43,795 nt of DNA from an uncultured Bacteroidaceae bacterium (GTDB lineage Bacteria > Bacteroidota > Bacteroidia > Bacteroidales > P3). Below the pieces are notes generated by a model. That model was not told the origin of the DNA and made no database searches. It was given only the letters and a program-made list of their open reading frames with translations. The stretch is taken from positions 4,658 to 48,452 of the forward strand of contig CAZVEO010000001.1 in the NCBI GenBank assembly GCA_964626385.1, read 5' to 3'. The first letter of the stretch is position 1; every line of letters begins with the position of its first letter. Of this stretch, positions 9,473-43,740 are shown one piece after another. Made by a program: the position numbers and the translations under genes.

Positions 9473-9570
9473 ATTACGTAATAGATTTTTTATATATTTT
9501 GTTATACATTATTTAAATAATATAAGTAACTTATTTTTTATTTATTTATTGTATAAAGTAGCAAAAAAAA

Positions 9571-9822
9571 ACACCCGCGGGGTGTTTTATATGGCAAAAC
9601 CCTTACTTTTTTTTGCATAGGTTGTTATAGGTTAGCATAAGTTGAGATGGGGCACAGCCGTTAAAAAAAAACACATACGCTTAAGCGTCTTATAAAACAC
9701 CCTATGGGTACAGGCACCGCCTGTTTTATAAGACGCAAACCTTTAGCTTCAGGCTTATTTTAATGGCTCTGCCCGTATAGAACAGCCTCAGGCTGTAACC
9801 CATGCTAACCTATAAAAAAAAC
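9571..9822. repeat. Mosaic of short GC-rich palindromic words; forms a three-tier nested inverted repeat
   Basis: Nested arms: 9626-9638/9802-9814 (13 bp perfect), 9650-9663/9761-9774 (12 Watson-Crick pairs, one G-T wobble and one mismatch over 14 positions) and 9685-9699/9722-9736 (15 bp perfect). Words such as caccc-NNN-gggtg, cagcc-tca-ggctg and ttttataag recur at other loci. Confidence 0.8.
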
Positions 9823-9909
9823 AAAAAAACGAAAAAGAAACAACAAAAGAAAAAACAAAAAAACGGTTTACTGGAAATCAATAAGTTACAAATAAAAATT
9901 GTGCACGCG

Positions 9910-9941
9910 TTTGGTCAGGTCAAAAAATGTTCGTAACTTTG
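9910..9941 (+). promoter_or_regulatory. Strong candidate Bacteroidota promoter inside twin element A (-33 TTTG, -7 TAACTTTG)
   Basis: TTTG at 9910-9913 and TAACTTTG at 9934-9941, 20 nt apart. The whole block is conserved with copy B except one base. Confidence 0.5.
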
Positions 9942-9947
9942 TAAGAG

Positions 9948-10073
9948 AAAAAGATACCTACCACAAAATTAACGATTTTTAGTCTTATAACTACTTGATA
10001 ATCAATAAAAACGAATCTTCGTTTCATTTTATCGAAACGAAGATTCGTCGAAATGAAACGAAGATTCATTTTT
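9948..10073 (+). ncRNA. Hypothetical ~125-nt small RNA from the element promoter to a hairpin plus U5
   Basis: Predicted start a few nt after the -7 box. The 3' end is set by the 10011-10025 arm paired to 10055-10068, followed by TTTTT (10069-10073). No conserved ORF. Confidence 0.25.
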
Positions 10074-10249
10074 GCAAAATCCCAATTTCGAAAAATTTTT
10101 CTTCGAAAAACCTCTCGAAAACTCTGAAAATGAGGAAAAAAGCCCGATTTTGACCCTTAAAAAAGGTTAAGTGATTGATAATCAGCAGTAGCCCCCCTGT
10201 TTTTTGCTTTTAAATGGGTATTTACGCGATTTCCCGAAAAAATTTTTTT

Positions 10250-10500
10250 ACCACTTTTTTTATAGGTTTTTATAGGTTACACCCACAGGGTACACCCATA
10301 GGGTGTTTTATAAGGGCATAGCCTTTACTTTTGATAGGTTAGCATAGGTTGTTATAAGTTAGCATAGACACTTAAGCGAAGCCTCAGGTTTTTTTATAGA
10401 TGCATAAGCGTACGTGTTCTTTTAATGGCTTTGCCTTGTAAGACACCCTGTGGGTGTGGCTTTGCTCTTATAAGACAGGCTGTGCCTGTAACTTTTGGCA
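10250..10500. repeat. Second mosaic of the palindromic-word family
   Basis: Contains cacccacagggt, cacccatagggtgttttataagggcatagcc, two ataggttagcat-type words, caccctgtgggtg and acaggctgtgcctgt. Confidence 0.75.
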
Positions 10501-10539
10501 AATTATTTTAAAATATTTTGCTATACAAAAAAAACAAAG

Positions 10540-10547
10540 TAATTTTG
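10540..10547 (+). promoter_or_regulatory. Candidate -7 promoter box (TAATTTTG) for citD
   Basis: Exact TAnnTTTG match 52 nt upstream of the ATG at 10600. Confidence 0.4.
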
Positions 10548-10599
10548 CTACCTATCTTAGTGAAGAATAAAATTAACGCTAAACAAAATAGAAAAAATC

Positions 10600-16008: not shown

Positions 16009-16046
16009 ATTGAGAATTATATTGTTGTGAGTTATTATAGATTGTT

Positions 16047-16131
16047 ATAGGTTAGCATAAGTTATGATAAAAACGGAACACCTAAGTTTTGTCAAATGCT
16101 TAAGTGTGTATCAAAACTTATGCAAACCTAT
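16047..16131. repeat. Palindromic-word family unit (ataggttagcataagtt inverted pair)
   Basis: 17-nt arms at 16047-16063 and 16115-16131 are reverse complements with one mismatch. The same word occurs at 9626, 9802, 10336, 34238, 36209 and 43590. Confidence 0.7.
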
Positions 16132-16150
16132 TATAAAGTTGTATATATAA

Positions 16151-22485: not shown

Positions 22486-22938
22486 TTATAATAGCATATC
22501 TTGGTTGGAAAGGCTGAGTTCCATTTTTAATTTGATAAGAAAAGGACGTTTTAAGTATAGTAATAACAACAAAATTATGGGTACTACAACTGACTCAGCC
22601 GATTTGACAAATAATATAGATAGAGAAGCAAGCACCACCAAACCAATATAAGAAAAGAATATTGTTTTGTTTAATTTAAAATAAGTGGAGAGTTTATTTG
22701 TCAAGTTATTATTACTTGCAAGGTCTTTTAACTTGTTTTTATATTTCTTGCTTATAAACAAAGCGACTACCACTACTATTATTTGTATAGCATACATATA
22801 GTGTATAGAGAAAAAATTGTTTTCTCCTTTTGATAAAGGAGAAAATGCATAAAGACAAGCAATTGCTACAATCATAACACTGATAATTACAGCAATAGTC
22901 CAAATAAAACGCAATGTATTCAAATATTTCTTAATCAT
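22486..22938 (-). CDS. Small integral membrane protein of unknown function
   Basis: 150 aa with about four hydrophobic helices. No recognisable motif. Confidence 0.5.
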   Translation of the reverse strand: MIKKYLNTLRFIWTIAVIISVMIVAIACLYAFSPLSKGENNFFSIHYMYAIQIIVVVVALFISKKYKNKLKDLASNNNLTNKLSTYFKLNKTIFFSYIGLVVLASLSILFVKSAESVVVPIILLLLLYLKRPFLIKLKMELSLSNQDMLL

Positions 22939-23089: not shown

Positions 23090-25126
23090 ATGGCAACAAC
23101 AAATAAAAGCATAGAGGAACGCATAGAAGATATTGCAAAAAGCAACTTAACAAATATCAAAGTAAAATATTATGCAAAAACAGACGGTATAAATGATGAG
23201 ATAGATGAGGCTTTAGCAAAGGCACCAAGCAAATCAGGAGGTAAAGGCAAGAACTACCCAGATATAAAAGTGTTATTGCAAACCAAAGATATGAAGTATT
23301 TGCCTGTGATGATAGAGGTTAAAGGACGAAAGGGAGATTTGATAAAAGTCAATGAAGAGGGGTTGATTGATAACTTAAAAAAAGATAAAACGCCTAACTA
23401 TAAAAATATAACAAAATATGCTGTCAATGGTGCTGTGCATTATGCAGAGGCTATAATAAGAAATACAGAAACATATAAAGAAGTTATTGCCATAGGTATA
23501 AATGGTTATGAGGAGAATAAACAATACAAAACAGAATTGGGAGTTTATTTTCTCTCGCAAGAAAATTTTCTTGTACCTAAAAAGATAGATAATTTTACGG
23601 ACTTATCTTTTCTTAGCAAAGATTATGAAGACACTTTGATGGAAAAGATAAAGAATTTGTCTTTAACTGATGAGGAGTTAGAAAGAAAAGCCAAAGAGTT
23701 TGAAAACGAGATAGAAGTAAAACTCAAAGCTCTTAATCAACAAATGCACGATGTTTATAATATTTCTGTTGGTTCTCGTGTGCAATTGGTTTGCGGAATG
23801 ATAATGGCAGGTTTGGGGGTAAAGGATAAGGTCTCACCTCTTGCAATTACAGACTTAAAAGGAGAAAGCGGAGAAAACTCAAATGACGGAGCAATAATTA
23901 TAAATAAAATATCGGACTTTCTTAACGAAAAACGTTTGCCAAAAGAAAAGAGAGAGATGATTATAAGAGATTTAAAACAAGTATTTATTTCCTCAAATCT
24001 TTGGCGTGCAACTGACGGAGAAAGCAAACTTAAAAATGTTTATGCTACTGTCAAAAAAGATATTATGCCAATATTCACTTCTGCCAAGCATCTTGATTTC
24101 ACGGGTAAATTATTTAATGTTCTTAATGCTTGGGTGGATATTCCTGATAGTGAAAGAAATGACGTTGTGCTTACTCCTCGTTATGTTACAGACTTAATGG
24201 CAAAGATAGCAGGAGTAAATATGGATTCATACGTTTGGGATTATGCTGTGGGTAGTGCAGGTTTTCTTATCTCTTCTATGAAACTTATGCTTAAAGATGC
24301 TGAGCAGAGAATAAAATCACAAAAAGAATTTTCTCAAAAAGTAAGGGATATAAAATGCAAACAGTTGCTCGGTATTGAAAAACGTGCTGATATTTATATG
24401 CTTGCCGTGTTGAATATGATACTTATGGAAGACGGCTCAGCAAATATTCTTCACATGGATTCATTAACCGAATTTGACGGCAACTATGAACAAGGAGAAA
24501 TGAAAGGCAAAGAATTTCCTGCAAATGTATTTTTGCTTAACCCTCCTTATTCGGCAGAAGGTAAAGGTTTTGTTTTTGTGGAAAAAGCCTTGCAAAGAAT
24601 GAAACAAGGTAGAGCAGTTGTCCTTATACAAGAAAATGCTGGAAGTGGCAACGGCTTACCTTACACACAAGACCTTTTAAAGAGAAATACTCTTGTTGCT
24701 TCCATACACATGTCCGATATTTTTTATGGTAAGGCTGGAGTGCAAACGGCTATTTATGTTTTTAACATAGGCATACCTCACAACGAAAAACAATTAGTAA
24801 AATTTATCAACTTTGCTAATGACGGATATACAAGACAAAACCGCAAAAAGTCTTCACAAGACACCAACCTAAAAAACACCGACCACGCCATGGAAAGATA
24901 CGAAGAGGTCGCTAATCTTGTCTTGTATGGTAAGAAATATTTGCATTATCTTTTAGAGGAGGATTATATTGAAGACACTATAACACTTAACGGTAATGAT
25001 TGGACTTTTTCTCAACACAGAAAGATAGATACCATTCCAACCGAAGCGGATTTTAGAAAAGTTGTAAAAGATTATCTTTCTTGGAAAGTGTCAAACGTAA
25101 TAAAACAAGAAGGCGAAAATTTTTAG
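23090..25126 (+). CDS. BcgIA-like Type IIB restriction-modification subunit (N-terminal PD-ExK-like nuclease fused to a gamma-class N6-adenine methyltransferase)
   Basis: 678 aa. YPDIKV...MIEVKG resembles a PD...ExK nuclease core. TPRYVTDLM, VWDYAVGSAGFL (AdoMet motif I) and LLNPPY (motif IV) follow in HsdM/BcgIA order. No HsdR-like gene nearby. Confidence 0.7.
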   Translation: MATTNKSIEERIEDIAKSNLTNIKVKYYAKTDGINDEIDEALAKAPSKSGGKGKNYPDIKVLLQTKDMKYLPVMIEVKGRKGDLIKVNEEGLIDNLKKDKTPNYKNITKYAVNGAVHYAEAIIRNTETYKEVIAIGINGYEENKQYKTELGVYFLSQENFLVPKKIDNFTDLSFLSKDYEDTLMEKIKNLSLTDEELERKAKEFENEIEVKLKALNQQMHDVYNISVGSRVQLVCGMIMAGLGVKDKVSPLAITDLKGESGENSNDGAIIINKISDFLNEKRLPKEKREMIIRDLKQVFISSNLWRATDGESKLKNVYATVKKDIMPIFTSAKHLDFTGKLFNVLNAWVDIPDSERNDVVLTPRYVTDLMAKIAGVNMDSYVWDYAVGSAGFLISSMKLMLKDAEQRIKSQKEFSQKVRDIKCKQLLGIEKRADIYMLAVLNMILMEDGSANILHMDSLTEFDGNYEQGEMKGKEFPANVFLLNPPYSAEGKGFVFVEKALQRMKQGRAVVLIQENAGSGNGLPYTQDLLKRNTLVASIHMSDIFYGKAGVQTAIYVFNIGIPHNEKQLVKFINFANDGYTRQNRKKSSQDTNLKNTDHAMERYEEVANLVLYGKKYLHYLLEEDYIEDTITLNGNDWTFSQHRKIDTIPTEADFRKVVKDYLSWKVSNVIKQEGENF

Positions 25127-25770
25127 ATAGCCCACGCTCAAACAATAAACTTCCAAAAGCGTGGGCATACAAAGAATATCAAATAGGAGGTGAAAAAGGA
25201 TTATTTACATCACGAACAGGAAATTTTGATATTCAGAAGAAACATCTTAATGGAAAAGGCTATTATGTCGTAAGTTCTGGTGAACAGAACAATGGTATTG
25301 TTGGCAAAACAGATGCTAATGCCCTAGTTATAGAAGAAAATACTATAACGGTTGATATGTTTGGTAATGTATATTTTAGAGACCATAAATACAAAATGGT
25401 TACACACGCTCGTGTATTTACACTTGAATTTAAAAGAAGAGAATTGTCTAAAGAAATAGGAATGTACCTTGTTGCACAAATGCAATATTTTAGACAAAAG
25501 TTTTCCTATAGCAATATGGCAAGTTTTGAAAAAATTAAAAATACTACTATTTTACTTCCTATTACTCGTAGCGGAGAAATAGATTTTGCTTTTATGGAGC
25601 AATATATTCGCGAGCTTGAACTCGCTCGTATTCGCGAGCTTGAATTATTTCTAAAAGTTTGTGGATTTAATGATTGCACACTAAACAAAGAAGAACTTTC
25701 AGCAATAGAAAAATTCCGTATGGGGGGGGGGGGAAAAGGGGAAAGAATATCAAATAGATACGCTGCTTGA
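25081..25770 (+). CDS. Specificity (S) subunit, 5' segment: TRD1 plus central helix, ending out of frame after the G12 tract
   Basis: The frame opens at 25057 inside the upstream gene. There is no in-frame ATG before TRD1; the only canonical candidate is TTG 25081. KLPKAWAYKEYQIG and LLPITRSGEIDFAFMEQYIRELE are HsdS/BcgIB-like. Confidence 0.7.
   Translation: MESVKRNKTRRRKFLDSPRSNNKLPKAWAYKEYQIGGEKGLFTSRTGNFDIQKKHLNGKGYYVVSSGEQNNGIVGKTDANALVIEENTITVDMFGNVYFRDHKYKMVTHARVFTLEFKRRELSKEIGMYLVAQMQYFRQKFSYSNMASFEKIKNTTILLPITRSGEIDFAFMEQYIRELELARIRELELFLKVCGFNDCTLNKEELSAIEKFRMGGGGKGERISNRYAA
25722..25733 (+). repeat. Homopolymeric G12 tract inside the S gene (candidate slipped-strand phase-variation site)
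   Basis: 12 consecutive G. The upstream S frame and the downstream TRD2 frame differ by one nucleotide across it. Confidence 0.9.
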
Positions 25771-26278
25771 AAAAGTTAATTGTAAAAAATTAAAATATAA
25801 AGTAGGCGACCTTCCAAAACACCCTACATACGATTACAATTTACCTTGCCTTACATCGGGGACAAATAATCAGGGGTTATCCTGCTATGTACCAAAAGAA
25901 GAAGCAACTATATTAAAAGATGTTATAAGTATTGCATCAAACGGAAGTGCTGGCACAACATACTACCAAGACGATGAATTTACAATTTTGCAAGATGCAT
26001 ATGCTGTTAAATCAAAAAATATAAATTTAACAAAAGAACAATATTTGTACTTGGTAGCAACTATAAATAAACTTACATTGAAGAAATTTTCTTGGACAAA
26101 TAAAGCAGGTTGGCATAAGGTAGCAAAAGAAAAATTTTATCTTCCCGTTTCTGAAAACGGAGAAATAGATTTTGATTTTATGCAGGTGTATATTCGTGCC
26201 ATAGAGAAGCAAGTAATAAAGCACGTTATAGACTGGAAGGACAAAGAAATAGCAGAGACGAAGAAGATATGTAAGTAA
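25733..26278 (+). CDS. Specificity (S) subunit, 3' segment: TRD2 plus distal helix, out of frame with the 5' segment in this sequence
   Basis: The frame after the tract reads EKGKEYQIDTLLEKVNCKKLKYKVGDLP...FYLPVSENGEIDFDFMQVYIRAIE. This parallels the TRD1 start (KEYQI) and end (GEIDF.FM..YIR). The 25988 ORF in the track is its tail. Confidence 0.7.
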   Translation, partial: EKGKEYQIDTLLEKVNCKKLKYKVGDLPKHPTYDYNLPCLTSGTNNQGLSCYVPKEEATILKDVISIASNGSAGTTYYQDDEFTILQDAYAVKSKNINLTKEQYLYLVATINKLTLKKFSWTNKAGWHKVAKEKFYLPVSENGEIDFDFMQVYIRAIEKQVIKHVIDWKDKEIAETKKICK

Positions 26279-34132: not shown

Positions 34133-34339
34133 CTTTTTTATATGGTTTTCTATTTATCTTTTTTGCGAAATTACAAAAATAAAAAGAAAGTAACGGTTCA
34201 GTCCTTGTGCTAACCTTAAATAACTCATCACAACTCATGCTAACCTATAAAAAGAAAAAAACAAAAAAATAACAAAAAGAAAAACAAAAGAATCGGTTTA
34301 CTGATTATCAATAAGTTATAAAAAAAAAGTGTGCACGCG

Positions 34340-34371
34340 TTTGGTCAGGTCAAAAAATCTTCGTAACTTTG
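34340..34371 (+). promoter_or_regulatory. Strong candidate promoter inside twin element B (-33 TTTG, -7 TAACTTTG)
   Basis: Same block as 9910-9941 with a single substitution in the spacer. Confidence 0.5.
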
Positions 34372-34377
34372 TAAGAG

Positions 34378-34503
34378 AAAAAGATACCTACCACAAAATT
34401 CCCATTTTTTACCCTTATAACTATCTGATAATCAATAATAACGAATCTTCGTTTCGAGAAATCGAAACGAAGATTCGTCGAAATAAAACGAAGATTCATT
34501 TTT
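34378..34503 (+). ncRNA. Hypothetical ~125-nt small RNA, paralogue of 9948-10073
   Basis: Arms at 34441-34455, 34464-34478 and 34485-34498 are identical to copy A. The loop differs, and a T5 run lies at 34499-34503. Confidence 0.25.
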
Positions 34504-34694
34504 GTAAAACCCGCTTAAAGAAAAATTTTTCTTCAAAAAACCTCTCGAAAACGCTGAAAATGAGGAAAAAAGCTCAATTTTACCCCTTCGAAAAAGGTTA
34601 ACTCACTGATAATCAATAGTAGCACCCTTGTTTTTTACTTTTAAATAGGTATTTACGCGATTTCCCGAAAATTTTTTTTGAGTCTTTTTTTTTG

Positions 34695-34702
34695 TATCTT
34701 TG
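34695..34702 (+). promoter_or_regulatory. Candidate -7 promoter box (TATCTTTG) for the MATE gene
   Basis: Exact TAnnTTTG match 51 nt upstream of the ATG at 34754, immediately after the end of twin element B. Confidence 0.4.
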
Positions 34703-34753
34703 CAAATTATTTTTTTGTATATAAAAGAGTGTGTAAGAGATAGAAGAATCTAT

Positions 34754-36124
34754 ATGTTGAGAAAGAAAAAGAGCGATATTTTGTTTTCCATGGTACGCAA
34801 CGGGCAAACAATGACACTTAAACAGCAATTGCATTTGGTGGCATTGTTGAGCATTCCTGGTATATTGGCACAATTATCAAGCATAATGATGCAATATATA
34901 GATGCTTCTATGGTAGGTTCTTTGGGTGCTTCTGCTTCTGCTTCCATAGGTTTGGTTTCTACTTCTACTTGGTTGTTTTGGGGAACTACTTCTATGGCTG
35001 CTATGGGCTTTTCTGTACAGGTTGCTCACTTGATAGGAGCAAAGAAAAATTCGCAGGCAAGAAACGTCCTCAGGCAAGCAATAACTTCTACTTTTGTGTT
35101 TGCTATATTTATGACACTTTTGGCAGTAAGCATATCTCCTTTTTTGCCTTCTTGGTTGGGTGGAGGAGAGGATATAAGAAAAGATGCCACCACATATTTT
35201 TTTATTTTTTCTCTGTCTTTGCCTATCTATCAAATAAATTTTCTTGCAAGCAGTATGCTAAGATGTAGTGGTAATATTCAAGTACCGAGTATTCTCAATG
35301 TTTTGATGTGTGTTTTGGATGTTTTGTTTAATTATCTGTTTATTTTTGTTTGTGGTTTGGGAGTTATGGGTGCGGCTTTGGGTACTTTGGCTGCTGAGGC
35401 GATAACGGCATCGCTTATGATGTATTTTCTTTGTGTTAAGAGCAAAGAGTTAAGCATTTTGCACGAAAAAGGCTCTTTTCTACCTCAAAAAAGTGTTGTT
35501 CTTAAAGCACTTAAAATAGGTCTTCCTATGGGAGTGGAACATGTTGTGTTGTGCGGAGCACAAATATTGACCACTGTTATTGTTGCTCCGTTAGGCAAGT
35601 TTGCCATAGCGGCCAATAGTTTTGGAGTAACAGCAGAAAGTCTTTGTTATATGCCGGGATATGGTATAGCCGATGCCGCTACTACTTTGATTGGGCAGAG
35701 CATAGGAGCCAAACGCAAGGAATTGGTAAAGCGTTTTGCCAATATAACTGTTGTTTTGGGTATTTTTGCAATGACGGTTATGGGAGTGGTTATGTATGTT
35801 TTTGCTCCTTTGATGATGGATATACTGACTCCTGTGCAAGAAATAAGAGATATGGGAGTTTCAGCCCTTAGAATAGAAGCCTTTGCTGAACCAATGTTTG
35901 CTGCAAGTATAGTTTGCTATGGTATTTTTGTTGGAGCAGGTGATACTCTTGTACCTGCCATAATGAATTTGGGCAGTATATGGGCTGTGCGCCTGACCTT
36001 GGCATCTCTTTTGGTTACAACTATGGGACTTAACGGAGTGTGGTTGGCTATGTGTATAGAGTTGTGTTTTAGAGGTGTTATTTTCCTTATGCGTTTGCGT
36101 TGGGGCAAATGGATAAAAATATAA
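34754..36124 (+). CDS. MATE family efflux transporter
   Basis: 456 aa from ATG 34754. The track ORF start at 34700 overlaps the promoter box. About 12 hydrophobic helices and the N-terminal LSIPGILAQLSSIMMQYIDASMVG are typical of MATE. Confidence 0.85.
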   Translation: MLRKKKSDILFSMVRNGQTMTLKQQLHLVALLSIPGILAQLSSIMMQYIDASMVGSLGASASASIGLVSTSTWLFWGTTSMAAMGFSVQVAHLIGAKKNSQARNVLRQAITSTFVFAIFMTLLAVSISPFLPSWLGGGEDIRKDATTYFFIFSLSLPIYQINFLASSMLRCSGNIQVPSILNVLMCVLDVLFNYLFIFVCGLGVMGAALGTLAAEAITASLMMYFLCVKSKELSILHEKGSFLPQKSVVLKALKIGLPMGVEHVVLCGAQILTTVIVAPLGKFAIAANSFGVTAESLCYMPGYGIADAATTLIGQSIGAKRKELVKRFANITVVLGIFAMTVMGVVMYVFAPLMMDILTPVQEIRDMGVSALRIEAFAEPMFAASIVCYGIFVGAGDTLVPAIMNLGSIWAVRLTLASLLVTTMGLNGVWLAMCIELCFRGVIFLMRLRWGKWIKI

Positions 36125-36140
36125 AACACCACATGCATAG

Positions 36141-36198
36141 CCTGTTTTATATGGGCAGAGCGGTTACTTTTTTTAAGGCTCTGCCCATATAAAACAGG
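36141..36198. repeat. Perfect 21-bp inverted repeat built from palindromic-family words
   Basis: cctgttttatatgggcagagc (36141-36161) and gctctgcccatataaaacagg (36178-36198) with a 16-nt T-rich loop. Starts 17 nt after the MATE stop. No 3' U-run. Confidence 0.85.
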
Positions 36199-36304
36199 CT
36201 GTGCCTGTGCTAACCTATAAAAAAGCTATGCCAGAGCTTATGTTGAAACATTTTAAGCCTACAAAAAAAAATCAAAAAAATATTTGTAGGTTTGAGAAAA
36301 TATT

Positions 36305-36354: not shown

Positions 36355-39300
36355 ATGAGAAGAGTTTATTTTTTGTTAATACTTTTAATTATGAGTATTA
36401 GTGGATGGTCGCAGAGTACAGAAGTGACCATAGGAAATGGTGGTAGTACAAGTTTGTATGTACCAACGGGATTGTTTTACAAAAACAGTGCCTCACAAAT
36501 TATTTACCTACAAAGTGAGATAAATACTTCTGGCTATATTGCAGCAATAAGTTTTAAAAACAACTATTCCTCTTCTGATACAAATATTAGAAATATCAGA
36601 GTCTATATGGCTACAACACAACAGAGTGAGTTTGCTACAACTTCTTCGTATCTGTCTTTGGATAGCACTAATTTAGTGTATGAGGGTGCTTGGGTTATAA
36701 CTTATGGGCAGTGGTCGGAAATAGTTCTTGATAATCCTTTTTACTATGATAATACAAGTAATTTGGTTATAGGAATTGAGGACTTTACAGGCTGGTATCC
36801 CGGCAATAATAGATATTGGGAAACTTCCTCAGGTACCAATAGATGTTTGTACAAAAGCTATGACTCAAGCCCTGTTAATATAACTTTTGATGGTTATACA
36901 CCTTCTAAGGCTAATAATTTTCCTAATGTAAAAATGACTTTGGTGCAAAATATATCAGACTATTGTTATGCTCCTCGTAATATAAGACTTGTAGATACAA
37001 CCACTTCTTCTGCTACTATTACTTGGGCTAGTGATGATAATGCTTCTTCGTTTTATTATCAACTAAAACCTTCTACGGATTCTTGGGATGAAAATGGATA
37101 TATAAGTACTACGGATACAATTGTTGTTTTTAGTGATTTGCAAGCGGCAACAACATACGATTTTAGAATATACACTGATTGTGGAATTTCTTCGCAATCT
37201 ACTACAAAAACAATTTCTTTTTCCACCGCTTGTGCTTTGATAGACTCTGTTCCTTATACTTGGAACTTTGAAGCCAACAACACAGGAGGTACAACCACTT
37301 ATCCTTTACCTGCTTGTTGGGACAGAGTGGGTTCTTACCCTTATTCTTATACCTCTACAACTCATGCTGTTAGTGGTAGTAAGGTATTGTATTTTTTTGC
37401 AAATAATAGGTATGGTATACTTCCACAAATAGATACAGATAATTTGCCAATAAACACTTTGCAAATTTCTTTTTATGCAAAAAAGGGTACTGCTACGGGT
37501 AATAATATTCAAGTGGGTGTTATGACAAATATTGCAGATACTTCTACTTTTGTACCTGTTGCAACTTTGGATTTAACCACAAACTATAGGTATTATGACG
37601 TGTCTTTGGAAGAGTATAGTGGAGACGGACAATTTATTGCTATAAAAACATATGGAACAAGTTCATCAGGATACACATATGTAGATGATGTAACCTTAAC
37701 GCTTGCTCCAGATTGCTCGCGTCCTACAGAGGTTAGTATAATGCCTTCTGCTTATGAATTTAGTGCAACGTGGAAATCTACAGCAACTAACTTCGAAATC
37801 TATTACAAGCAAAGTTCAGATGCAACTTATCAAGTAACACATAATTATTCAGAAAATCAACAAGATTCAACATGGAGTGTAACTATTTCGGATGAAATTA
37901 CTCCTAATACCAATTATGATTTTTATATAAAGGCTATTTGTAATGATGGTACTGAGTTGCTTTCGCAAACTTTTAGTTTTACTACATCATGTGTTGCTTT
38001 GGATGTTCCTTATACAATGGACTTTGAAAGCGTAGCTGTTGGAGAGCGTCCTTCATGTTGGTCATTTCTCAATAGCACCTCAACAGGTTTTCCTTACGTA
38101 TCATCGTCTTCTTACAGAGGACATAATTCCGCTAAGGGTTTGGAATTTCGTTCTACATCATCGGTCTCTACGGCTTCTATTGCTATAATGCCAGAATTTA
38201 CAGAGAATATAACCAATCTTTCTGTTGAATTTTGGTCAAAACCCGAATCAAATCCTGCAACTAATAGTTACTCTTCTGGTCGTTTGGAAGTGGGTTATGT
38301 AACCAATCCTTTGGATGCAAGCAGTTTTGTAATGTTAGATTCCATTAGTGTCTATACACTTGAAGACAGTACTTACCACAAATACAGAGTTAATTTTGAT
38401 AACATAGATTTGGGTGATGCCACTACAGGATATATTGCTTTTAGGCACGTATCTAATGGTAATTATTATTGGTATTTGGATGATGTAACAGTAGAGTTAG
38501 TGCCTGATTGCCAAGAGCCCGATCATTTAAATGTAGAGAGTTTTGCTGCTAATAGCGTAGAACTTTCTTGGCAATCAACACAAGAAACTTTAAATCTTTT
38601 ATACAAAGACACCTCATCTGTAGATTGGATAACAATAGAAAACGTATCTTTAAATGAGGACAGTGTGTACGTTTTACAAAACCTATCTCCTAATACAACA
38701 TATCAATGGAAGTTGAGTTTTGTTTGTGCTTCCGATGATGAGACTTATACATCGGAAACAAAACAATTTACAACAGAATGTGTGGGAATAACCACTTTGC
38801 CAATGACTTGGGATTTTGAATCGGGCAATACAGCAGGAACTACATCTAATCCTTTACCTGGATGTTGGAAAAGAATAGGTACAACTTACCCTAGGGTTTA
38901 TTCTTCTTCAACCTATGCACATCAAGGCTCTTATTCTTTGTATTTTAGTGGAAATAGTAAATATGCTATACTTCAACCTATAGATACAACAGTATTGCCA
39001 ATAAATACTCTACAACTTTCATTCTATGCATCACGCAATTCTTATGCTAACAATATTCAAGTAGGTGTTATGACAGACCCTACAGATACAAACACATTTG
39101 TAATTGTAGATACATTTAACATAACTACTTTATATAAACTTTATCAGGTAAGTTTTGCTCTATATCAAGGAACGGGTGAGTATATTGCTTTAAGGTCATA
39201 CGGTAGTAGTAGTGCCTCTATTTATGTTGACGATATGACTTTGGACGTTATTCCTTCTTGTTCTGAGCCAATGAATTTGGATGTAACAGTATCTTCCAAC

Positions 39301-42300
39301 AGTGTAGATGTTACATGGACATCAACAGGTAATGATTTTATTATTTACTATAAAGAAAATGGTGCTTCAGATTATCAGACAACAACAAGTTTTACTGCCT
39401 TAGAGCAAAGTGGCAGTTGGACTGCTACTATTTCCGACCTTACTTCTGCAACTAATTATAACCTATACATTGAGGCTCTTTGTAGTGAAGAGAATATAAG
39501 TTCGGAGACCGTTGTCTTTATGACTTCCTGCATGGCTATTAGTACAGTTCCTAAAACATGGGATTTTGAAACAGCCGATAATAGTTTAGAAACATATCCT
39601 ATGCCTCTTTGCTGGACAAGAATAGGTAACTCTACTACCTATCCTTATTCATTTAGTTATTCTTCAGCTTATTCTGGTTCTCGTGTTTTGTATTTCTCAG
39701 GTACAGACGGAAGATATGCTGTGCTTCCACAAATAGATACTAATGCATTATCATTAAACACATTGCAACTTTCTTTCTATGCAAAGAAGAGCTCTGATGT
39801 TTATAATACAAAAATTCAAGTGGGAATTATGAGTAGCCCTATAGATACTAATAATATAACCCTTGTTTCTTCTATTGATTTGACTACAGATTGGCTTCGA
39901 TATGAAATACCATTCTCTTCATTCTCGGGTTATGGTCAATACATTGTTTTAGAAGAAATATCTGCTTTTTCTGCCTCTGCATACGTAGACCTTATGACCT
40001 TGGAGGCTATTCCTTCTTGTTCTCGTCCAAATGAATTAATGGCTACAAATGTTTTGGAAAATCAAGCAACTATTACTTGGATATCAACAGGAAACAACTT
40101 TGAGGTTTATTATAAACAAAGTTATGATTCTGTTTATACAATGACAACCGATTTTACCTCTTCTACAGAGGATAATAATTGGCAAATAACTCTTAACAAC
40201 TTACAATCTTCTACTAATTATGATATATATGTAAAAGTTATTTGTGAAGACAATTATGAGGATTTCTCCAATGTCTTAACCTTTGCCTCTTCTTGTGCTG
40301 TGATAACCACGGTACCTCAAGATTGGGACTTTGAAACATATGGAAACAACAAAACCATATCATATTCATTACCTCTTTGCTGGACAAGAACAGGACTAAC
40401 TCCTACAACCTATCCTTACTCTTATACTACTGCAGCCAATGCTGTTAGTGGTAGTGGAGTTTTGTATTTTTATGGAAAAAATAAATATGCGGTGCTTCCA
40501 CAGATAGATACCAATATATTACCAATAAACACACTACAACTTTCCTTCTATGCAAAAACAACTTCAACAACCTTTAATGCTTTGCAAGTTGGCGTTATGA
40601 CTGACCCTATGGATACTAATACATTTACACTTATTTCTTCCATACAAATAAACAATAATACTCAAATCACATATGATATTCCTCTTGCCTCATACACAGG
40701 AATAGGAGAATACATTGCTATAAGGTCATATGGTAGTAATACTTCTGCAACTATTTATTTGGATGATTTGCACTTAAGTATTATTCCTACATGTACTCGT
40801 CCGACAAATATAACTGCAACAACCACCGAGCAGCAAGCAACGATTACTTGGAAATCTACAAGCAATAATTTTGAAATCTATTACAAAAAGTGTGAGGATG
40901 AGACTTATACAATGATAACTAACTTCTCTGCAGGTGTATTAGACAGCACTTGGACAACTACTATAACTGACCTTAACCCTGCAACAAACTATGATTTATA
41001 TATTAAGACAACTTGTAGTGATAATACAGAGTTTGAGTCAAATATGTTCTCATTTTCTACCTCTTGTGTGGCAATAAGTACTGTTCCTCAAACTTGGGAT
41101 TTTGAAGCCTGCGGTAATACTATAGAAACTTATCCTTTGCCACTTGGGTGGACAAGAACAGGCTCATCATCTACACAATACCCATACTCCTACACTTCCT
41201 CTTCTTATGCTACTAGTGGAACGAAGACTTTGTATTTTTATGGAAGGAAACAATATGCGGTGCTTCCTCAAATAGATACAAATCAATTACCATTGAACAC
41301 TTTACAACTTTCCTTCTATGGCAAAAGAGGTACCACCGCAGGTAATACCATACAAGTAGGAATTATGACAAATCCTACAGATACCAATACTTTTACACTT
41401 ATATCCAACTTAACATTAACGACTACTCATTTTTATTATGAAGTACCTTTAACCTCTTATGCGGGAACTGGTGGATATATAGCCATTAGGTATTATGGTA
41501 GTAGTACTTCTGCGACTGCGTATTTGGATGATGTAACTTTGGAAATTGCTCCTGCTTGTACTCGTCCTGCAATACTAACAGTAACACCTTCTACTGAAGA
41601 AGTTACTCTTACTTGGAAGTCTTCAGCAGATAATTTTGAAATTTATTATAAGGAAGCGTCTGATTCTATTTACGAAAACACTTCGGATTTTACTGCTACA
41701 ACACAAGATAGTATTTGGACATCAAATCTTTTTGGTCTTACCCCTGCTACTAAATATGATATCTATGTAAAGGCTATATGCGATGATAATTCGGAAGTAA
41801 ATTCATTTGTTTCCTCATTCCGTACTCTATGTTTGGAGGTTTCAGAATTTCCTTATACAGAGGATTTTGAACAATTGTCAGAAACAGATTTGGGATGCTG
41901 GACAAATGAAAATATTTCTGGTTCTACTTCTTGGACAATAAAAACTTCCTCTGTGGGTAAAGTTGCCTATAGAAGTTATACCACTGGTGCAAAATCCCGT
42001 TTGATTTCTCCTATTTTTGATATTACTTCATTATCTCAGCCTAAACTTTCTTATAATTGGGAAGTATGTAGTAGTGGTAACAATTTGGATTCCTTGTATG
42101 TTTATTATAGAACAAATGTTGGAAATGAATGGGTGCTTTTGACTTCACATGGTTCAAGTTATAGTGGAAACAATACCTCTTACACTGCTTCACAATTTGA
42201 TAGTATAATGCTTCCAGATGCAAGCGAAACTTATCAAATAGCTTTTCTTGCTGTTGGTCATAATGGTTATGGAGTATATTTGGATAATGTAGTTGTTAGC

Positions 42301-43371
42301 GATGATGATGGTAGTGTTGTTACTCCTGTTGAGCCTACGGTTGCGACAAATGTTGCTACGAATATTGCACAGACTTCAGTTACTCTTAACGGAACAATAA
42401 CCGATGCAGGCAACCAAACAATTACTGCCAAAGGTTTTGAGTGGAAAGCAACCAACGGAGGCACATACGCTCAACTACTTTCCTCTGATGCAGGCAATAC
42501 TTTTACCTATAATCTTACTAACTTGACGGCAAATACTTCATACACATACAGAGCCTTTGCCACCACAGCCAATGGTACTGTTTATGGAGCAGAAGTAGTA
42601 TTTACTACATTAGAAGCAGGCGAAGAACCTTGCACACCTGTTACAGCAAGTATTACTGAGACTTTGTGTTATGGAGAAACATTCACGTTTAACGGACAGA
42701 CCTATAACGCTACTGGTACATACCAAACGACCGTTGCAGGACAAAACGGAGATTGTGACACCAACTACACAATTAACCTAACTATCTTGCCTCAAAATAC
42801 AGCAAGTATTACTGAGACTTTGTGTAATGGTGAGACATTCACATTTAACGGACAGACCTATAACGCTACTGGTACATACCAAACGACCGTTGCAGGACAA
42901 AACGGAGATTGTGATACCAACTACACAATTAATCTTACCATTTTGCCACAAAATGCTCCAATAAACGATGAGGTTACAATTTCTCAAAGTGAGTTACCTT
43001 ATGAGTATCACGGACAAACATATAATGACTTTGGTACTTATAGCGTAACCTTGCAAGATGAGAATGGTTGCGACCAAGTTTATAACCTTACTCTTGTACA
43101 TAATTCAGGTATTGCAGAAGTTGAGGAAGAATTGACTATTAGTTTATATCCGAACCCAACTGATAACAATGCTACATTAAGAGTTAAAGGCTTAAATGAG
43201 CAAGCGACAATAATAATCACCGACCAACAAGGAAGAGTGATACAGACAAAAGTTTTGCCACAAGGCACAGAGACTTTTGAGATAGAGAGCGAAAGACTTG
43301 CGAGCGGAGTTTATTATATAAGAATACAAACCACTAACACAATAAGAACCGAAAAACTTATTAAAAAATAG
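36355..43371 (+). CDS. Giant modular T9SS-secreted surface protein (MAM/choice-of-anchor-J-like plus FN3-like modules, Cys-rich repeats, T9SS sorting domain)
   Basis: 2338 aa with signal peptide MRRVYFLLILLIMSISGWSQ. Six ~255-aa modules (TWDFE...CW.R.G...YAVLPQIDTN.LP.NTLQLSFYAK...YLDDVTL..P.C.RP then ...TW.ST.NNFEIYYK...TNYD.YIK..C). C-terminal LYPNPTDNNATLRV...GVYYIRIQT sorting domain. Confidence 0.85.
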   Translation: MRRVYFLLILLIMSISGWSQSTEVTIGNGGSTSLYVPTGLFYKNSASQIIYLQSEINTSGYIAAISFKNNYSSSDTNIRNIRVYMATTQQSEFATTSSYLSLDSTNLVYEGAWVITYGQWSEIVLDNPFYYDNTSNLVIGIEDFTGWYPGNNRYWETSSGTNRCLYKSYDSSPVNITFDGYTPSKANNFPNVKMTLVQNISDYCYAPRNIRLVDTTTSSATITWASDDNASSFYYQLKPSTDSWDENGYISTTDTIVVFSDLQAATTYDFRIYTDCGISSQSTTKTISFSTACALIDSVPYTWNFEANNTGGTTTYPLPACWDRVGSYPYSYTSTTHAVSGSKVLYFFANNRYGILPQIDTDNLPINTLQISFYAKKGTATGNNIQVGVMTNIADTSTFVPVATLDLTTNYRYYDVSLEEYSGDGQFIAIKTYGTSSSGYTYVDDVTLTLAPDCSRPTEVSIMPSAYEFSATWKSTATNFEIYYKQSSDATYQVTHNYSENQQDSTWSVTISDEITPNTNYDFYIKAICNDGTELLSQTFSFTTSCVALDVPYTMDFESVAVGERPSCWSFLNSTSTGFPYVSSSSYRGHNSAKGLEFRSTSSVSTASIAIMPEFTENITNLSVEFWSKPESNPATNSYSSGRLEVGYVTNPLDASSFVMLDSISVYTLEDSTYHKYRVNFDNIDLGDATTGYIAFRHVSNGNYYWYLDDVTVELVPDCQEPDHLNVESFAANSVELSWQSTQETLNLLYKDTSSVDWITIENVSLNEDSVYVLQNLSPNTTYQWKLSFVCASDDETYTSETKQFTTECVGITTLPMTWDFESGNTAGTTSNPLPGCWKRIGTTYPRVYSSSTYAHQGSYSLYFSGNSKYAILQPIDTTVLPINTLQLSFYASRNSYANNIQVGVMTDPTDTNTFVIVDTFNITTLYKLYQVSFALYQGTGEYIALRSYGSSSASIYVDDMTLDVIPSCSEPMNLDVTVSSNSVDVTWTSTGNDFIIYYKENGASDYQTTTSFTALEQSGSWTATISDLTSATNYNLYIEALCSEENISSETVVFMTSCMAISTVPKTWDFETADNSLETYPMPLCWTRIGNSTTYPYSFSYSSAYSGSRVLYFSGTDGRYAVLPQIDTNALSLNTLQLSFYAKKSSDVYNTKIQVGIMSSPIDTNNITLVSSIDLTTDWLRYEIPFSSFSGYGQYIVLEEISAFSASAYVDLMTLEAIPSCSRPNELMATNVLENQATITWISTGNNFEVYYKQSYDSVYTMTTDFTSSTEDNNWQITLNNLQSSTNYDIYVKVICEDNYEDFSNVLTFASSCAVITTVPQDWDFETYGNNKTISYSLPLCWTRTGLTPTTYPYSYTTAANAVSGSGVLYFYGKNKYAVLPQIDTNILPINTLQLSFYAKTTSTTFNALQVGVMTDPMDTNTFTLISSIQINNNTQITYDIPLASYTGIGEYIAIRSYGSNTSATIYLDDLHLSIIPTCTRPTNITATTTEQQATITWKSTSNNFEIYYKKCEDETYTMITNFSAGVLDSTWTTTITDLNPATNYDLYIKTTCSDNTEFESNMFSFSTSCVAISTVPQTWDFEACGNTIETYPLPLGWTRTGSSSTQYPYSYTSSSYATSGTKTLYFYGRKQYAVLPQIDTNQLPLNTLQLSFYGKRGTTAGNTIQVGIMTNPTDTNTFTLISNLTLTTTHFYYEVPLTSYAGTGGYIAIRYYGSSTSATAYLDDVTLEIAPACTRPAILTVTPSTEEVTLTWKSSADNFEIYYKEASDSIYENTSDFTATTQDSIWTSNLFGLTPATKYDIYVKAICDDNSEVNSFVSSFRTLCLEVSEFPYTEDFEQLSETDLGCWTNENISGSTSWTIKTSSVGKVAYRSYTTGAKSRLISPIFDITSLSQPKLSYNWEVCSSGNNLDSLYVYYRTNVGNEWVLLTSHGSSYSGNNTSYTASQFDSIMLPDASETYQIAFLAVGHNGYGVYLDNVVVSDDDGSVVTPVEPTVATNVATNIAQTSVTLNGTITDAGNQTITAKGFEWKATNGGTYAQLLSSDAGNTFTYNLTNLTANTSYTYRAFATTANGTVYGAEVVFTTLEAGEEPCTPVTASITETLCYGETFTFNGQTYNATGTYQTTVAGQNGDCDTNYTINLTILPQNTASITETLCNGETFTFNGQTYNATGTYQTTVAGQNGDCDTNYTINLTILPQNAPINDEVTISQSELPYEYHGQTYNDFGTYSVTLQDENGCDQVYNLTLVHNSGIAEVEEELTISLYPNPTDNNATLRVKGLNEQATIIITDQQGRVIQTKVLPQGTETFEIESERLASGVYYIRIQTTNTIRTEKLIKK
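42646..42957 (+). repeat. Two near-identical 156-nt (52-aa) tandem repeats inside the giant gene, followed by a diverged third copy to ~43113
   Basis: ASITETLC(Y/N)GETFTFNGQTYNATGTYQTTVAGQNGDCDTNYTINLTILPQN occurs twice. The DNA copies differ at roughly a dozen positions. Confidence 0.9.
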
Positions 43372-43740
43372 CACCCATAGGGTGTCTTATAAGGGCATAG
43401 CCGTTATAATAGTATAGTTAACGGCTTTGCCCTTTTTGAACAGCCTCAGGCTGCACCCACAGGGTGTTTTATAAGGGCACAGGCATAGCCTGTTTTATAA
43501 GGGCATAGCCGTTATATAAAATCAAGGGACACTTTTCTAAGAAAGGTGGCCCTTTTCTTTTTTATGGATTTTGGTAGGTTATTATGAGTTAGCATAAGTT
43601 GTAATGAATTATGATAAGGGCAAAGCACCCACAAGGTGTTTTATAAGACGCTTAAGCCTATGTGTTTCTTTTAACGGCTTTGCCATATAAAACAGGTTAA
43701 GCCTGCATGCTGTGGCTACAAAAAAAGTTGGCGGGCTTTG
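43372..43740. repeat. Densest array of the palindromic-word family, downstream of the giant gene
   Basis: cacccatagggtgtcttataagggcatagcc, cagcctcaggctg, cacccacagggtgttttataagggcacaggcatagcctgttttataagggcatagcc, cacccacaaggtgttttataagacgcttaagc and aacggctttgccatataaaacagg. Confidence 0.8.
43393..43437 (+). terminator. Intrinsic terminator after the giant gene, built from family words
   Basis: Stem gggcatagccgtta / taacggctttgccc (13 of 14 pairs) followed by TTTTT. Confidence 0.65.

Follow-up and report, generated by a model that had tools for sequence, protein, structure and literature searches.

A 43,795-nt stretch of a contig from an uncultured Bacteroidaceae bacterium (hereafter the window) contains two copies of a non-coding element, one in the spacer between aspA and citD (copy A) and one in the spacer between mpl and the MatE gene (copy B). 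These copies belong to a repeat family that is spread through intergenic DNA, varies in site and orientation between sister genomes, shows promoter-like constraint, retains the pairing of its hairpin arms and lacks coding constraint. The family is probably a lineage-specific, high-copy, non-autonomous mobile repeat that carries the transcription unit of a small RNA (sRNA) of ~130 nt. That the promoter fires and yields an RNA of this length is predicted from the sequence, and analogy with other systems suggests that the RNA may act in trans through its 5' end, or be needed for the element's own spread.

Copies in the window and in a sister genome

Copies A and B are colinear, with a mean column identity of 89% (MAFFT alignment of 9781-10300 with 34216-34730) and 87% identity over the core region alone. 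This bears out an earlier inspection of the letters (the sequence-only reading), which had picked out the twin segments as lying in the same orientation and agreeing at about nine positions in ten. An ungapped repeat finder returned the pair as the longest dispersed repeat in the window, at 85% identity over 300 nt and 84% over 102 nt. Homology between the two starts at about 9799-9801 and 34234-34236, at CATGCTAACCTAT, and ends at about 10262 and 34692, inside a T-run, a span slightly wider than the one first delimited. Each copy lies between divergent genes, as had also been described: aspA(-) and citD(+) for copy A, mpl(-) and MatE(+) for copy B. No further copies were found in the window by a profile search.

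A 19-mer of the -33 promoter block was scanned against one genome per species, giving at least 68 matches, of which at least 55 fell in a single metagenome-assembled genome, CAZITO01 ('uncultured Bacteroidaceae bacterium', GCA_964542225.1); among the matches listed from other genomes, all were chance matches in GC-rich coding DNA. CAZITO01, referred to below as the sister genome, is a close relative of the window genome, with 90% identity between the Mpl proteins and a DNA identity of 83-90% for syntenic genes. Every match in it with enough sequence has the same -7 block downstream. Its full copies are 83-95% identical to one another (median 90%) and 73-79% identical to the window copies. All copies are intergenic, the nearest open reading frame (ORF) of at least 120 aa lying 20-565 nt from the approximate span of the element, and a profile search of ~370 kb of sister-genome loci found no copy without the 19-mer. 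Further copies of the window type are implied by six called ORFs on NCBI contigs, three of them on one 38.6-kb contig.

The element is cut by a contig end in 38 of the at least 55 sister-genome matches, as is typical of a repeat that breaks assemblies, and several contigs have a copy at both ends. Many contigs, such as contigs 7, 10, 25, 28, 32 and 48, start and end in the element, with the promoter pointing outward at these ends. This implies that the repeat largely sets the fragmentation of the CAZITO01 assembly.

These copy numbers bear on one alternative, a chance segmental duplication without function that is confined to the genome of the window. Only two copies lie in the 43.8-kb window, as such a duplication would have it, and the sequence-only reading had held that a lack of homologues elsewhere would point to this origin. 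The check for copies in relatives that it proposed instead yielded at least 55 in CAZITO01, so that A and B are not a private pair. A duplication without homologues elsewhere is ruled out by these copies and, given also the window-type copies implied by the NCBI called ORFs, a duplication confined to the window genome has practically no credence.

Searches of wider collections were largely negative. No match to the element was found by blastn among PLSDB plasmids or INPHARED phages, while scans of IMG/VR gave one chance match in a GC-rich coding region and were otherwise empty. Scans of the JGI metagenomes with two different conserved blocks gave zero matches, which indicates that the family is not widespread there. 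Neither the element nor the REP/decamer modules that usually accompany it were present in ~100 kb of loci from more distant relatives. Exact-protein look-ups of the window proteins and the short called ORFs returned no record, and no description of the family was found in the literature on miniature inverted-repeat transposable elements (MITEs) or repetitive extragenic palindrome (REP) elements of Bacteroidales.

Sites, orientation and surroundings

Comparison of orthologous spacers reveals that the element is present or absent in both directions. The gene order around mpl and MatE is alike in the two genomes; in the window the spacer holds the element and measures 621 nt, and in CAZITO01 and three independent Logan assemblies it measures 247 nt, is element-free and gives no profile match. 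Hence the empty sites that the sequence-only reading had proposed to seek in relatives do exist, at least for copy B. Homology to the element-free sister locus resumes at TTTGAGTC, just before the MatE promoter, and the promoter region of MatE itself is kept with and without the element. The reverse situation is found upstream of the ortholog of the gene at 22486-22938, where CAZITO01 has decamers, a REP hairpin and the core of the element in a position that is an ordinary spacer of 150 nt in the window. The grouping of copies follows the genome rather than the locus, which implies that they have been turned over or homogenised since the species split.

The aspA-citD spacer is occupied in both genomes, with colinear flanks, but the element is directed at citD in the window and at aspA in CAZITO01; sister-genome homology at the citD upstream region resumes at 10493. 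Opposite orientations at one locus could arise from an invertible promoter cassette (inverton), in which a recombinase flips the core between inverted decamer arrays to drive either neighbour. Such opposed arrays (ATGCTAACCTAT ... ATAGGTTAGCAT) flank the core at copy A and at ~60% of the CAZITO01 copies, and the orientation of copies relative to their neighbours is mixed. However, the left array is missing at copy B and at the 'type II' copies, no gene for a recombinase was detected in the vicinity, adjoining genes retain promoters of their own, and the contigs break inside the core rather than at the arrays. Furthermore, no derived characters link copy A specifically to its positional counterpart in the sister genome (L019), and the flip is explained just as well by a separate insertion into a hot spot rich in repeats. 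For copies bracketed by such arrays the inverton reading, which draws on a single orientation difference between species, is conceivable but improbable.

No clean empty site could be identified for copy A: in AspA relatives (96%, 93% and 85% identical) the genes upstream of aspA are different ones and these repeats are missing, and homology with the aspA upstream region of relatives stops at 9552-9569. The gene in this position differs among all the relatives compared: in the window and the sister genome it is citDEF, L070-73 have a CitMHS transporter gene there, L074-76 have pdxJ, and L085-89 have a gene for an Orn/Arg decarboxylase. The spot upstream of aspA (9473-10599 of the window) is therefore a rearrangement hot spot, and it coincides with the repeat cluster. 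In closer Mpl relatives (94-96% identical) the contigs break 70-135 nt upstream of mpl, which is consistent with a repeat in that position.

The same comparisons argue against a role for the element as a cis-acting leader or attenuator combined with a portable promoter for the downstream gene (the citD operon or MatE), a role close to the 'portable promoter or leader' that had been among the first candidates. Both window copies do point at a downstream gene, the three arms described below can form alternative hairpins in the manner of an attenuator, and there is a weak, sub-threshold resemblance to the PyrR and Phe leaders of Rfam (E-values of 0.14-0.26). These Rfam matches are nevertheless far below gathering scores. 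Among copies with a known downstream gene, 11 are in the same orientation as that gene and 6, in the sister genome, in the opposite one; three sister-genome copies lie between convergent genes. The MatE promoter does not change with the presence of the element, and copy A is set off from the conserved upstream region of citD by 250-340 nt of repeats. Because orientation is mixed and the neighbours keep their own upstream regions, a cis role is very unlikely.

The element is usually accompanied by a separate family of modules, consisting of REP-like GC hairpins (CACCCnnnGGGTG then TTTTATAAGGGCAnAGCC) and arrays with a 10-nt period (ATAGGTTAGC ATAAGTTGAG ...), which occur both with and without the core, are abundant in CAZITO01 and are absent from more distant relatives. 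Mosaics of these modules lie at 9553-9800, 10251-10492, 16009-16150, 36118-36212 and 43358-43720 of the window. The first of them, with hairpins and decamer arrays, is on the left of copy A, and the second, with decamers, REP hairpins and a decamer array, is on its right. In all 17 full CAZITO01 copies listed, the core is followed on the right by a T-run, one to four REP hairpins, GTTAC with a T-run, and a decamer array; this order is found at copy A and is lacking at copy B. The flanking modules have the form of REP elements and of bacterial interspersed mosaic elements (BIMEs), with, for example, CACCCnnnGGGTG then TTTTATAAGGGCAAAGCC in tandem up to four times, whereas the core itself is not a short GC-rich palindrome.

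Across the family, conservation covers a core of ~390 nt, from (C)GGTTTACTGAnnATCAATAAGTTAC in box 1 to ...ATTTC(CCGAAAAAAT...). To its left is a variable head, of which there are at least four versions: two that are A-rich and follow a reverse decamer unit, one of 45 nt without decamers, and one in which a REP hairpin is fused directly to the box 1 region. Head and spacer variants are found in all combinations. Copies A and B are both abutted by the reverse-oriented decamer unit CATGCTAACCTATAA (9801-9815 and 34236-34250), which is also present at ~60% of the sister-genome copies, followed by an A-rich leader on the plus strand (9816-9863 and 34251-34293). The left limit of family-wide conservation is the box 1 region (9864-9889, CGGTTTACTGGAAATCAATAAGTTAC; 34294-34319), and the right end of the core is formed by the tail TATTTACGCGATTTCCCG with an A/T run (10219-10250 in copy A; 34650-34684, including the right junction, in copy B). 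The tail, singled out in the sequence-only reading as conserved, occurs exactly twice in the window, once per copy.

The spaced box motif noted in that reading is present in both copies, with one qualification, that the first box of copy A is degenerate (TGGAAATCA at 9872). The corresponding box of copy B is TGATTATCA at 34302-34310, and the palindrome TGATAATCA recurs as box 2 (9996-10004 and 34426-34434) and box 3 (10176-10184 and 34607-34615). The motif recurs three or four times, including near both ends of the element, and could be a protein site. In copy A, blocks of moderately conserved A/T-rich sequence make up the downstream half of the core (10075-10175, plus strand; diversity 0.14).

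Predicted promoter, transcript and coding potential

Each copy has TTTG (9910-9913 in A, 34340-34343 in B), a 20-nt gap and TAACTTTG (9934-9941 and 34364-34371), an arrangement correctly recognised at the outset as a textbook Bacteroidota promoter; TTTG and TAnnTTTG constitute the established Bacteroides promoter consensus. In copy A the promoter occupies 9903-9941 of the plus strand, with the -33 block GCACGCGTTTGGTCAGGTC at 9903-9921, a variable spacer and then TTCGTAACTTTG, and in copy B it occupies 34333-34371. From the -33 block through about +28 the two copies differ by one mismatch, located in the spacer (MAFFT), so that the promoter block and the first ~30 transcribed nucleotides are indeed conserved at all but one position, as had been claimed. 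The predicted first ~27 transcribed nucleotides lie at 9942-9969 (plus strand), with the start of transcription placed near 9946-9950, and at 34372-34399 in copy B, where they are identical.

A conservation profile was built from 18 aligned copies from both genomes, with diversity values calculated among the CAZITO01 copies. The -33 and -7 blocks are identical in 18/18 copies (diversity 0.00), while the 8-nt promoter spacer has a diversity of 0.27. For comparison, diversity is 0.43 in the head, 0.07 in box 1, 0.04 in the arms and 0.13-0.19 in the remainder. Judged by this pattern of substitutions, invariant -33 and -7 blocks at an exact 20-nt spacing around a free spacer are the signature of selection on a promoter of the Bacteroides type. 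The stretch from +1 to +27 has a diversity of 0.01 within CAZITO01 and zero between the window copies, yet is 30% different between the genomes, and is unpaired in the predicted fold.

A different explanation of the invariance would make the element a selfish or structural module of the BIME kind, in which the invariant block of 105 nt is a mobility recognition site or a product of gene conversion, and the promoter is incidental or matters only through read-out into the neighbours. In its favour, the same REP/decamer modules lie to the right of 17/17 full CAZITO01 copies listed; in the window these modules are also found apart from the core, and more distant relatives lack the entire module system. 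The occurrence of head and spacer variants in all combinations suggests recombination among copies, and a box motif repeated 3-4 times, both ends included, resembles protein-binding sites. Against this, a contiguous protein site or a conversion tract is not expected to give fixed -33 and -7 blocks 20 nt apart with a free 8-nt spacer between them, which is the pattern of promoter selection. Invariance is limited to one side of the element (the tail has a diversity of 0.16) and transposases normally need both ends, while the pairing of the hairpin has been kept through changes on both sides. The selfish-module explanation thus seems unlikely, if the most plausible of the rivals considered here.

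Downstream of the predicted 5' end are three arms with the motif GAAACGAAGATTC, at 10013-25(-), 10034-46(+) and 10055-67(+) in copy A and at 34443-55(-), 34464-76(+) and 34485-97(+, one mismatch) in copy B; a search with the 13-nt motif gave 8 matches against 1.2 expected. These arms confirm the three-armed hairpin proposed for both copies. In copy A the paired segments extend over 10012-10025, 10034-10047 and 10055-10067 and are followed by the T-run ATTTTTG (whole feature 10012-10074, plus strand), and the equivalent feature of copy B is at 34442-34504. Arm 1 of copy A can pair with arm 2 at 15/15 positions or with arm 3 at 13/13, and the values for copy B are 15/15 and 12/13. Between arms 1 and 2, 13-15 of 15 positions pair in all 18 aligned copies. 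The partner of arm 3 is arm 1 in the window type (12-13 of 13) and arm 2 in CAZITO01 (up to 13 of 13), the lowest value across copies being 11 of 13, and ATTTT(T/C) always comes directly after arm 3. Between the genomes, TT/AA in the stem has become GG/CC, two pairs having changed on both sides.

The RNA predicted from about +1 to the T-run would be ~130 nt long, with fold z-scores of -4.2 to -5.5; its terminal hairpin folds and its first ~60 nt are left open. On the minus strand the hairpin of arms 1 and 2 with a T-run was also scored as terminator-like, and the three-arm hairpin is predicted to act as an intrinsic terminator on both strands. Rfam gave no match in the whole window at gathering thresholds, in keeping with the failure of the sequence-only reading to assign the element to an RNA family, and permissive scans gave only sub-threshold, hairpin-driven matches, none of them credible. 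A check for covariation across copies, also proposed there, gave a divided answer: the two stem pairs changed on both sides support the arm hairpin, while the consensus fold of the 18 copies holds almost no covariation elsewhere (term -0.41 kcal/mol), which implies that the element is not a large structured RNA. The suggestion of a paralogous sRNA gene accords with the anatomy and conservation of the -33 and -7 blocks, the 5' end and the terminator hairpin, the transcript itself being predicted.

The conservation of the element does not seem to be that of a protein. The plus-strand ORF at 34329-34601 of copy B, which had been reported as broken in copy A, is indeed shortened there to 27 aa. 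An ORF overlooked at that stage is the antisense one of 49 aa, intact on the minus strand of both window copies (9920-10069 and 34350-34499). It would correspond, on a further alternative, to the gene of a small basic protein, 49 aa long in the window and 60 aa in CAZITO01, for which the plus-strand RNA might be the antisense partner. The frame is at its full 60 aa in 18/21 CAZITO01 copies, and seven gene calls in public assemblies match it, six of them of the window type and from NCBI contigs. Nevertheless, its changed codons comprise 60 synonymous and 215 non-synonymous cases, its substitutions number 107, 119 and 145 at codon positions 1, 2 and 3, stop codons arise no less often than in the other five frames, and there are blocks invariant at all three codon positions. 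Purifying selection of the sort expected for a small protein or a type I toxin-antitoxin system is thus not evident. The frame in which the -33 block is read differs between the genomes (DLTKRVQ against PDQTRAH), in the window the block lies after a stop codon, the repeated NRRF peptide reflects the repetition of the arms, and no canonical Bacteroidota promoter was seen on the minus strand by eye. A protein gene is accordingly very improbable, and on the substitution pattern the antisense ORF is treated as non-coding, an inherited accident of a repeat of low divergence; the claim that conservation is not protein-coding extends to this frame as well. The antisense gene calls of 49-102 aa (L077 10001-10309; P0121-P0127) are probably spurious products of the repeat.

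Several observations weigh against a mobile element with an sRNA gene. No consistent terminal inverted repeats were found, the ends of the core having at best weak, imperfect inverted matches, and copies whose flanks are unique showed no target-site duplications. A transposase, a recombinase and a longer autonomous relative were looked for in the window without success, and no multi-copy transposase-like proteins turned up in the ~370 kb of sister-genome loci. As for the RNA, no 12-mer complements of the 5' end occur within the window, and the nine found in ~370 kb, against 2.1 expected (maximum 7), are mostly low-complexity and do not clearly exceed chance. Gene conversion among copies could contribute to their uniformity within a genome. 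Covariation beyond the arm hairpin is, as noted, negligible, and ~200 nt past the predicted terminator are also conserved.

The ends of the core resemble, by eye, imperfect direct copies of the box motif; in the one pair of filled and empty sites, at mpl-MatE, the left side is too diverged to place the junction. No RAYT (Y1 transposase) gene is present in the window, and no partial element was found beside a gene in the ~370 kb of sister-genome loci; both genomes are incomplete, which limits the weight of these absences. The element is small, non-coding and multi-copy (a core of ~390 nt, at least 55 CAZITO01 copies) and is present or absent at orthologous sites, as MITEs are. The candidate role of a non-autonomous mobile element is therefore strongly supported by copy number and by filled and empty sites in both directions, and lacks the support of terminal repeats and target duplications.

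A mobile repeat that carries an sRNA transcription unit would account for these observations as follows. The ~390-nt core would usually sit within mosaics of REP-like hairpins and 10-nt-periodic arrays, and would have been gained, lost or re-inserted since the two sister Bacteroidales species diverged. Each copy would carry a small transcription unit made up of a canonical promoter of the sigma-ABfr type, an unstructured 5' stretch of ~27 nt and a three-arm hairpin with a T-run, the last of which would stop transcription after ~130 nt. The resulting RNA may act in trans via its 5' end, like other multicopy Bacteroides sRNAs, or may aid the spread of the element.

Elsewhere in the window, two coding loci contain repeats of their own. 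The hsdS gene of a type I restriction-modification locus is split into two Methylase_S ORFs of 229 aa and 96 aa (25081-26278), with an internal 61-nt direct repeat (25550-25610 and 26136-26196). In a relative (L082) hsdS is a single gene of 401 aa, to which 25137-25585 of the window does not align, suggesting a different target-recognition domain or a broken or shuffled gene. A protein of 2338 aa encoded at 36355-43371 combines fibronectin type III domains with a type IX secretion sorting tail; its gene is built of five or more tandem ~765-nt units with 60-78% identity, and has a nearly perfect 156-nt tandem duplication at 42642-42953 and a sister-genome ortholog only 66-75% identical at the DNA level.

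Relation to known systems and significance

The Correia elements (CREE) of Neisseria are ~100-155 bp long, with 26-bp terminal inverted repeats, TA duplications and promoters made partly at their junctions. The family described here resembles such MITEs in being high-copy, non-coding and intergenic, present or absent at orthologous sites, and a carrier of transcription signals able to influence adjoining genes. It differs in its size of ~390 nt, in lacking clear inverted ends or duplications, and in that its most conserved part is a complete internal unit, predicted to run from promoter to terminator. The REP/BIME mosaics of enterobacteria and the REPIN-RAYT system of Pseudomonas are lineage-specific sets of short GC-rich extragenic hairpins in a fixed order, and they often serve as terminators or as targets of insertion. 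Modular GC-hairpin mosaics in extragenic space, with a fixed relative order and a lineage-specific distribution, are likewise found here. By contrast, the core is 390 nt long and bears a promoter rather than being a short palindrome, and no RAYT-type (Y1) transposase was seen in the sequence examined. REPs have been described as targets of insertion sequences (PMC1525189).

Dispersal at variable sites also sets the family apart from the invertons, as do the absence of inverted arrays at many copies and of a recombinase nearby, although a promoter-bearing segment in opposite orientations at one orthologous locus is common to both. Bacteroidales invertons often have a promoter segment bracketed by inverted repeats and fixed upstream of surface-structure operons.

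In transcription-unit anatomy the closest functional precedent, by analogy, would be the FopS family of B. thetaiotaomicron, whose 14 sRNAs have canonical sigma-ABfr promoters and act through a conserved 5' end (PMC11697453). As with the FopS and GibS sRNAs, the element is multicopy in Bacteroidales, each copy has its own putative sigma-ABfr promoter and a conserved 5' end predicted to be single-stranded, the downstream sequence is more variable, and locations are mostly intergenic (PMC11697453). Unlike them, it shows no detected sequence relation (no Rfam match), reaches at least 55 copies where the FopS/GibS multicopy sRNAs have at most 15 (PMC11697453), and has a repeat unit, tied to REP-like arrays, that reaches beyond the predicted RNA by ~110 nt on the upstream side and by 200 nt on the downstream side. 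The family therefore resembles Correia-type MITEs in behaviour, BIMEs in surroundings and FopS in the anatomy of its transcription unit.

A bolder proposal, which we put forward only tentatively, is that a complete sRNA gene has here become a mobile, self-spreading unit, with at least 55 copies per ~2-Mb genome and a 27-nt 5' end that has been re-tuned between sister species. A 5' end that is invariant within a genome and re-tuned between species would fit a high-dosage trans regulator co-evolving with its targets, or an RNA involved in the targeting or mobilisation of the element. In a less likely version of this proposal, flipping or movement of the cassettes would be frequent enough to rewire the transcription of adjoining housekeeping genes.

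Two practical consequences hold for public data. The element fragments short-read assemblies of uncultured gut Bacteroidales, as is evident from the 38 of at least 55 matches that end contigs, and some copies yield probably spurious protein calls of 49-102 aa in public assemblies. With a silent promoter, the family would simply add to the intergenic repeats confined to one lineage, and would matter chiefly to the study of genome dynamics. The dozens of copies with an identical promoter and 5' end, set in differing flanks and occupying different sites in sister species, amount to a natural experiment. A firing promoter would make this, by a wide margin, the largest family of paralogous sRNAs seen in Bacteroidales, and a clear example of how a gene for a regulatory RNA can spread in the manner of a transposable element.

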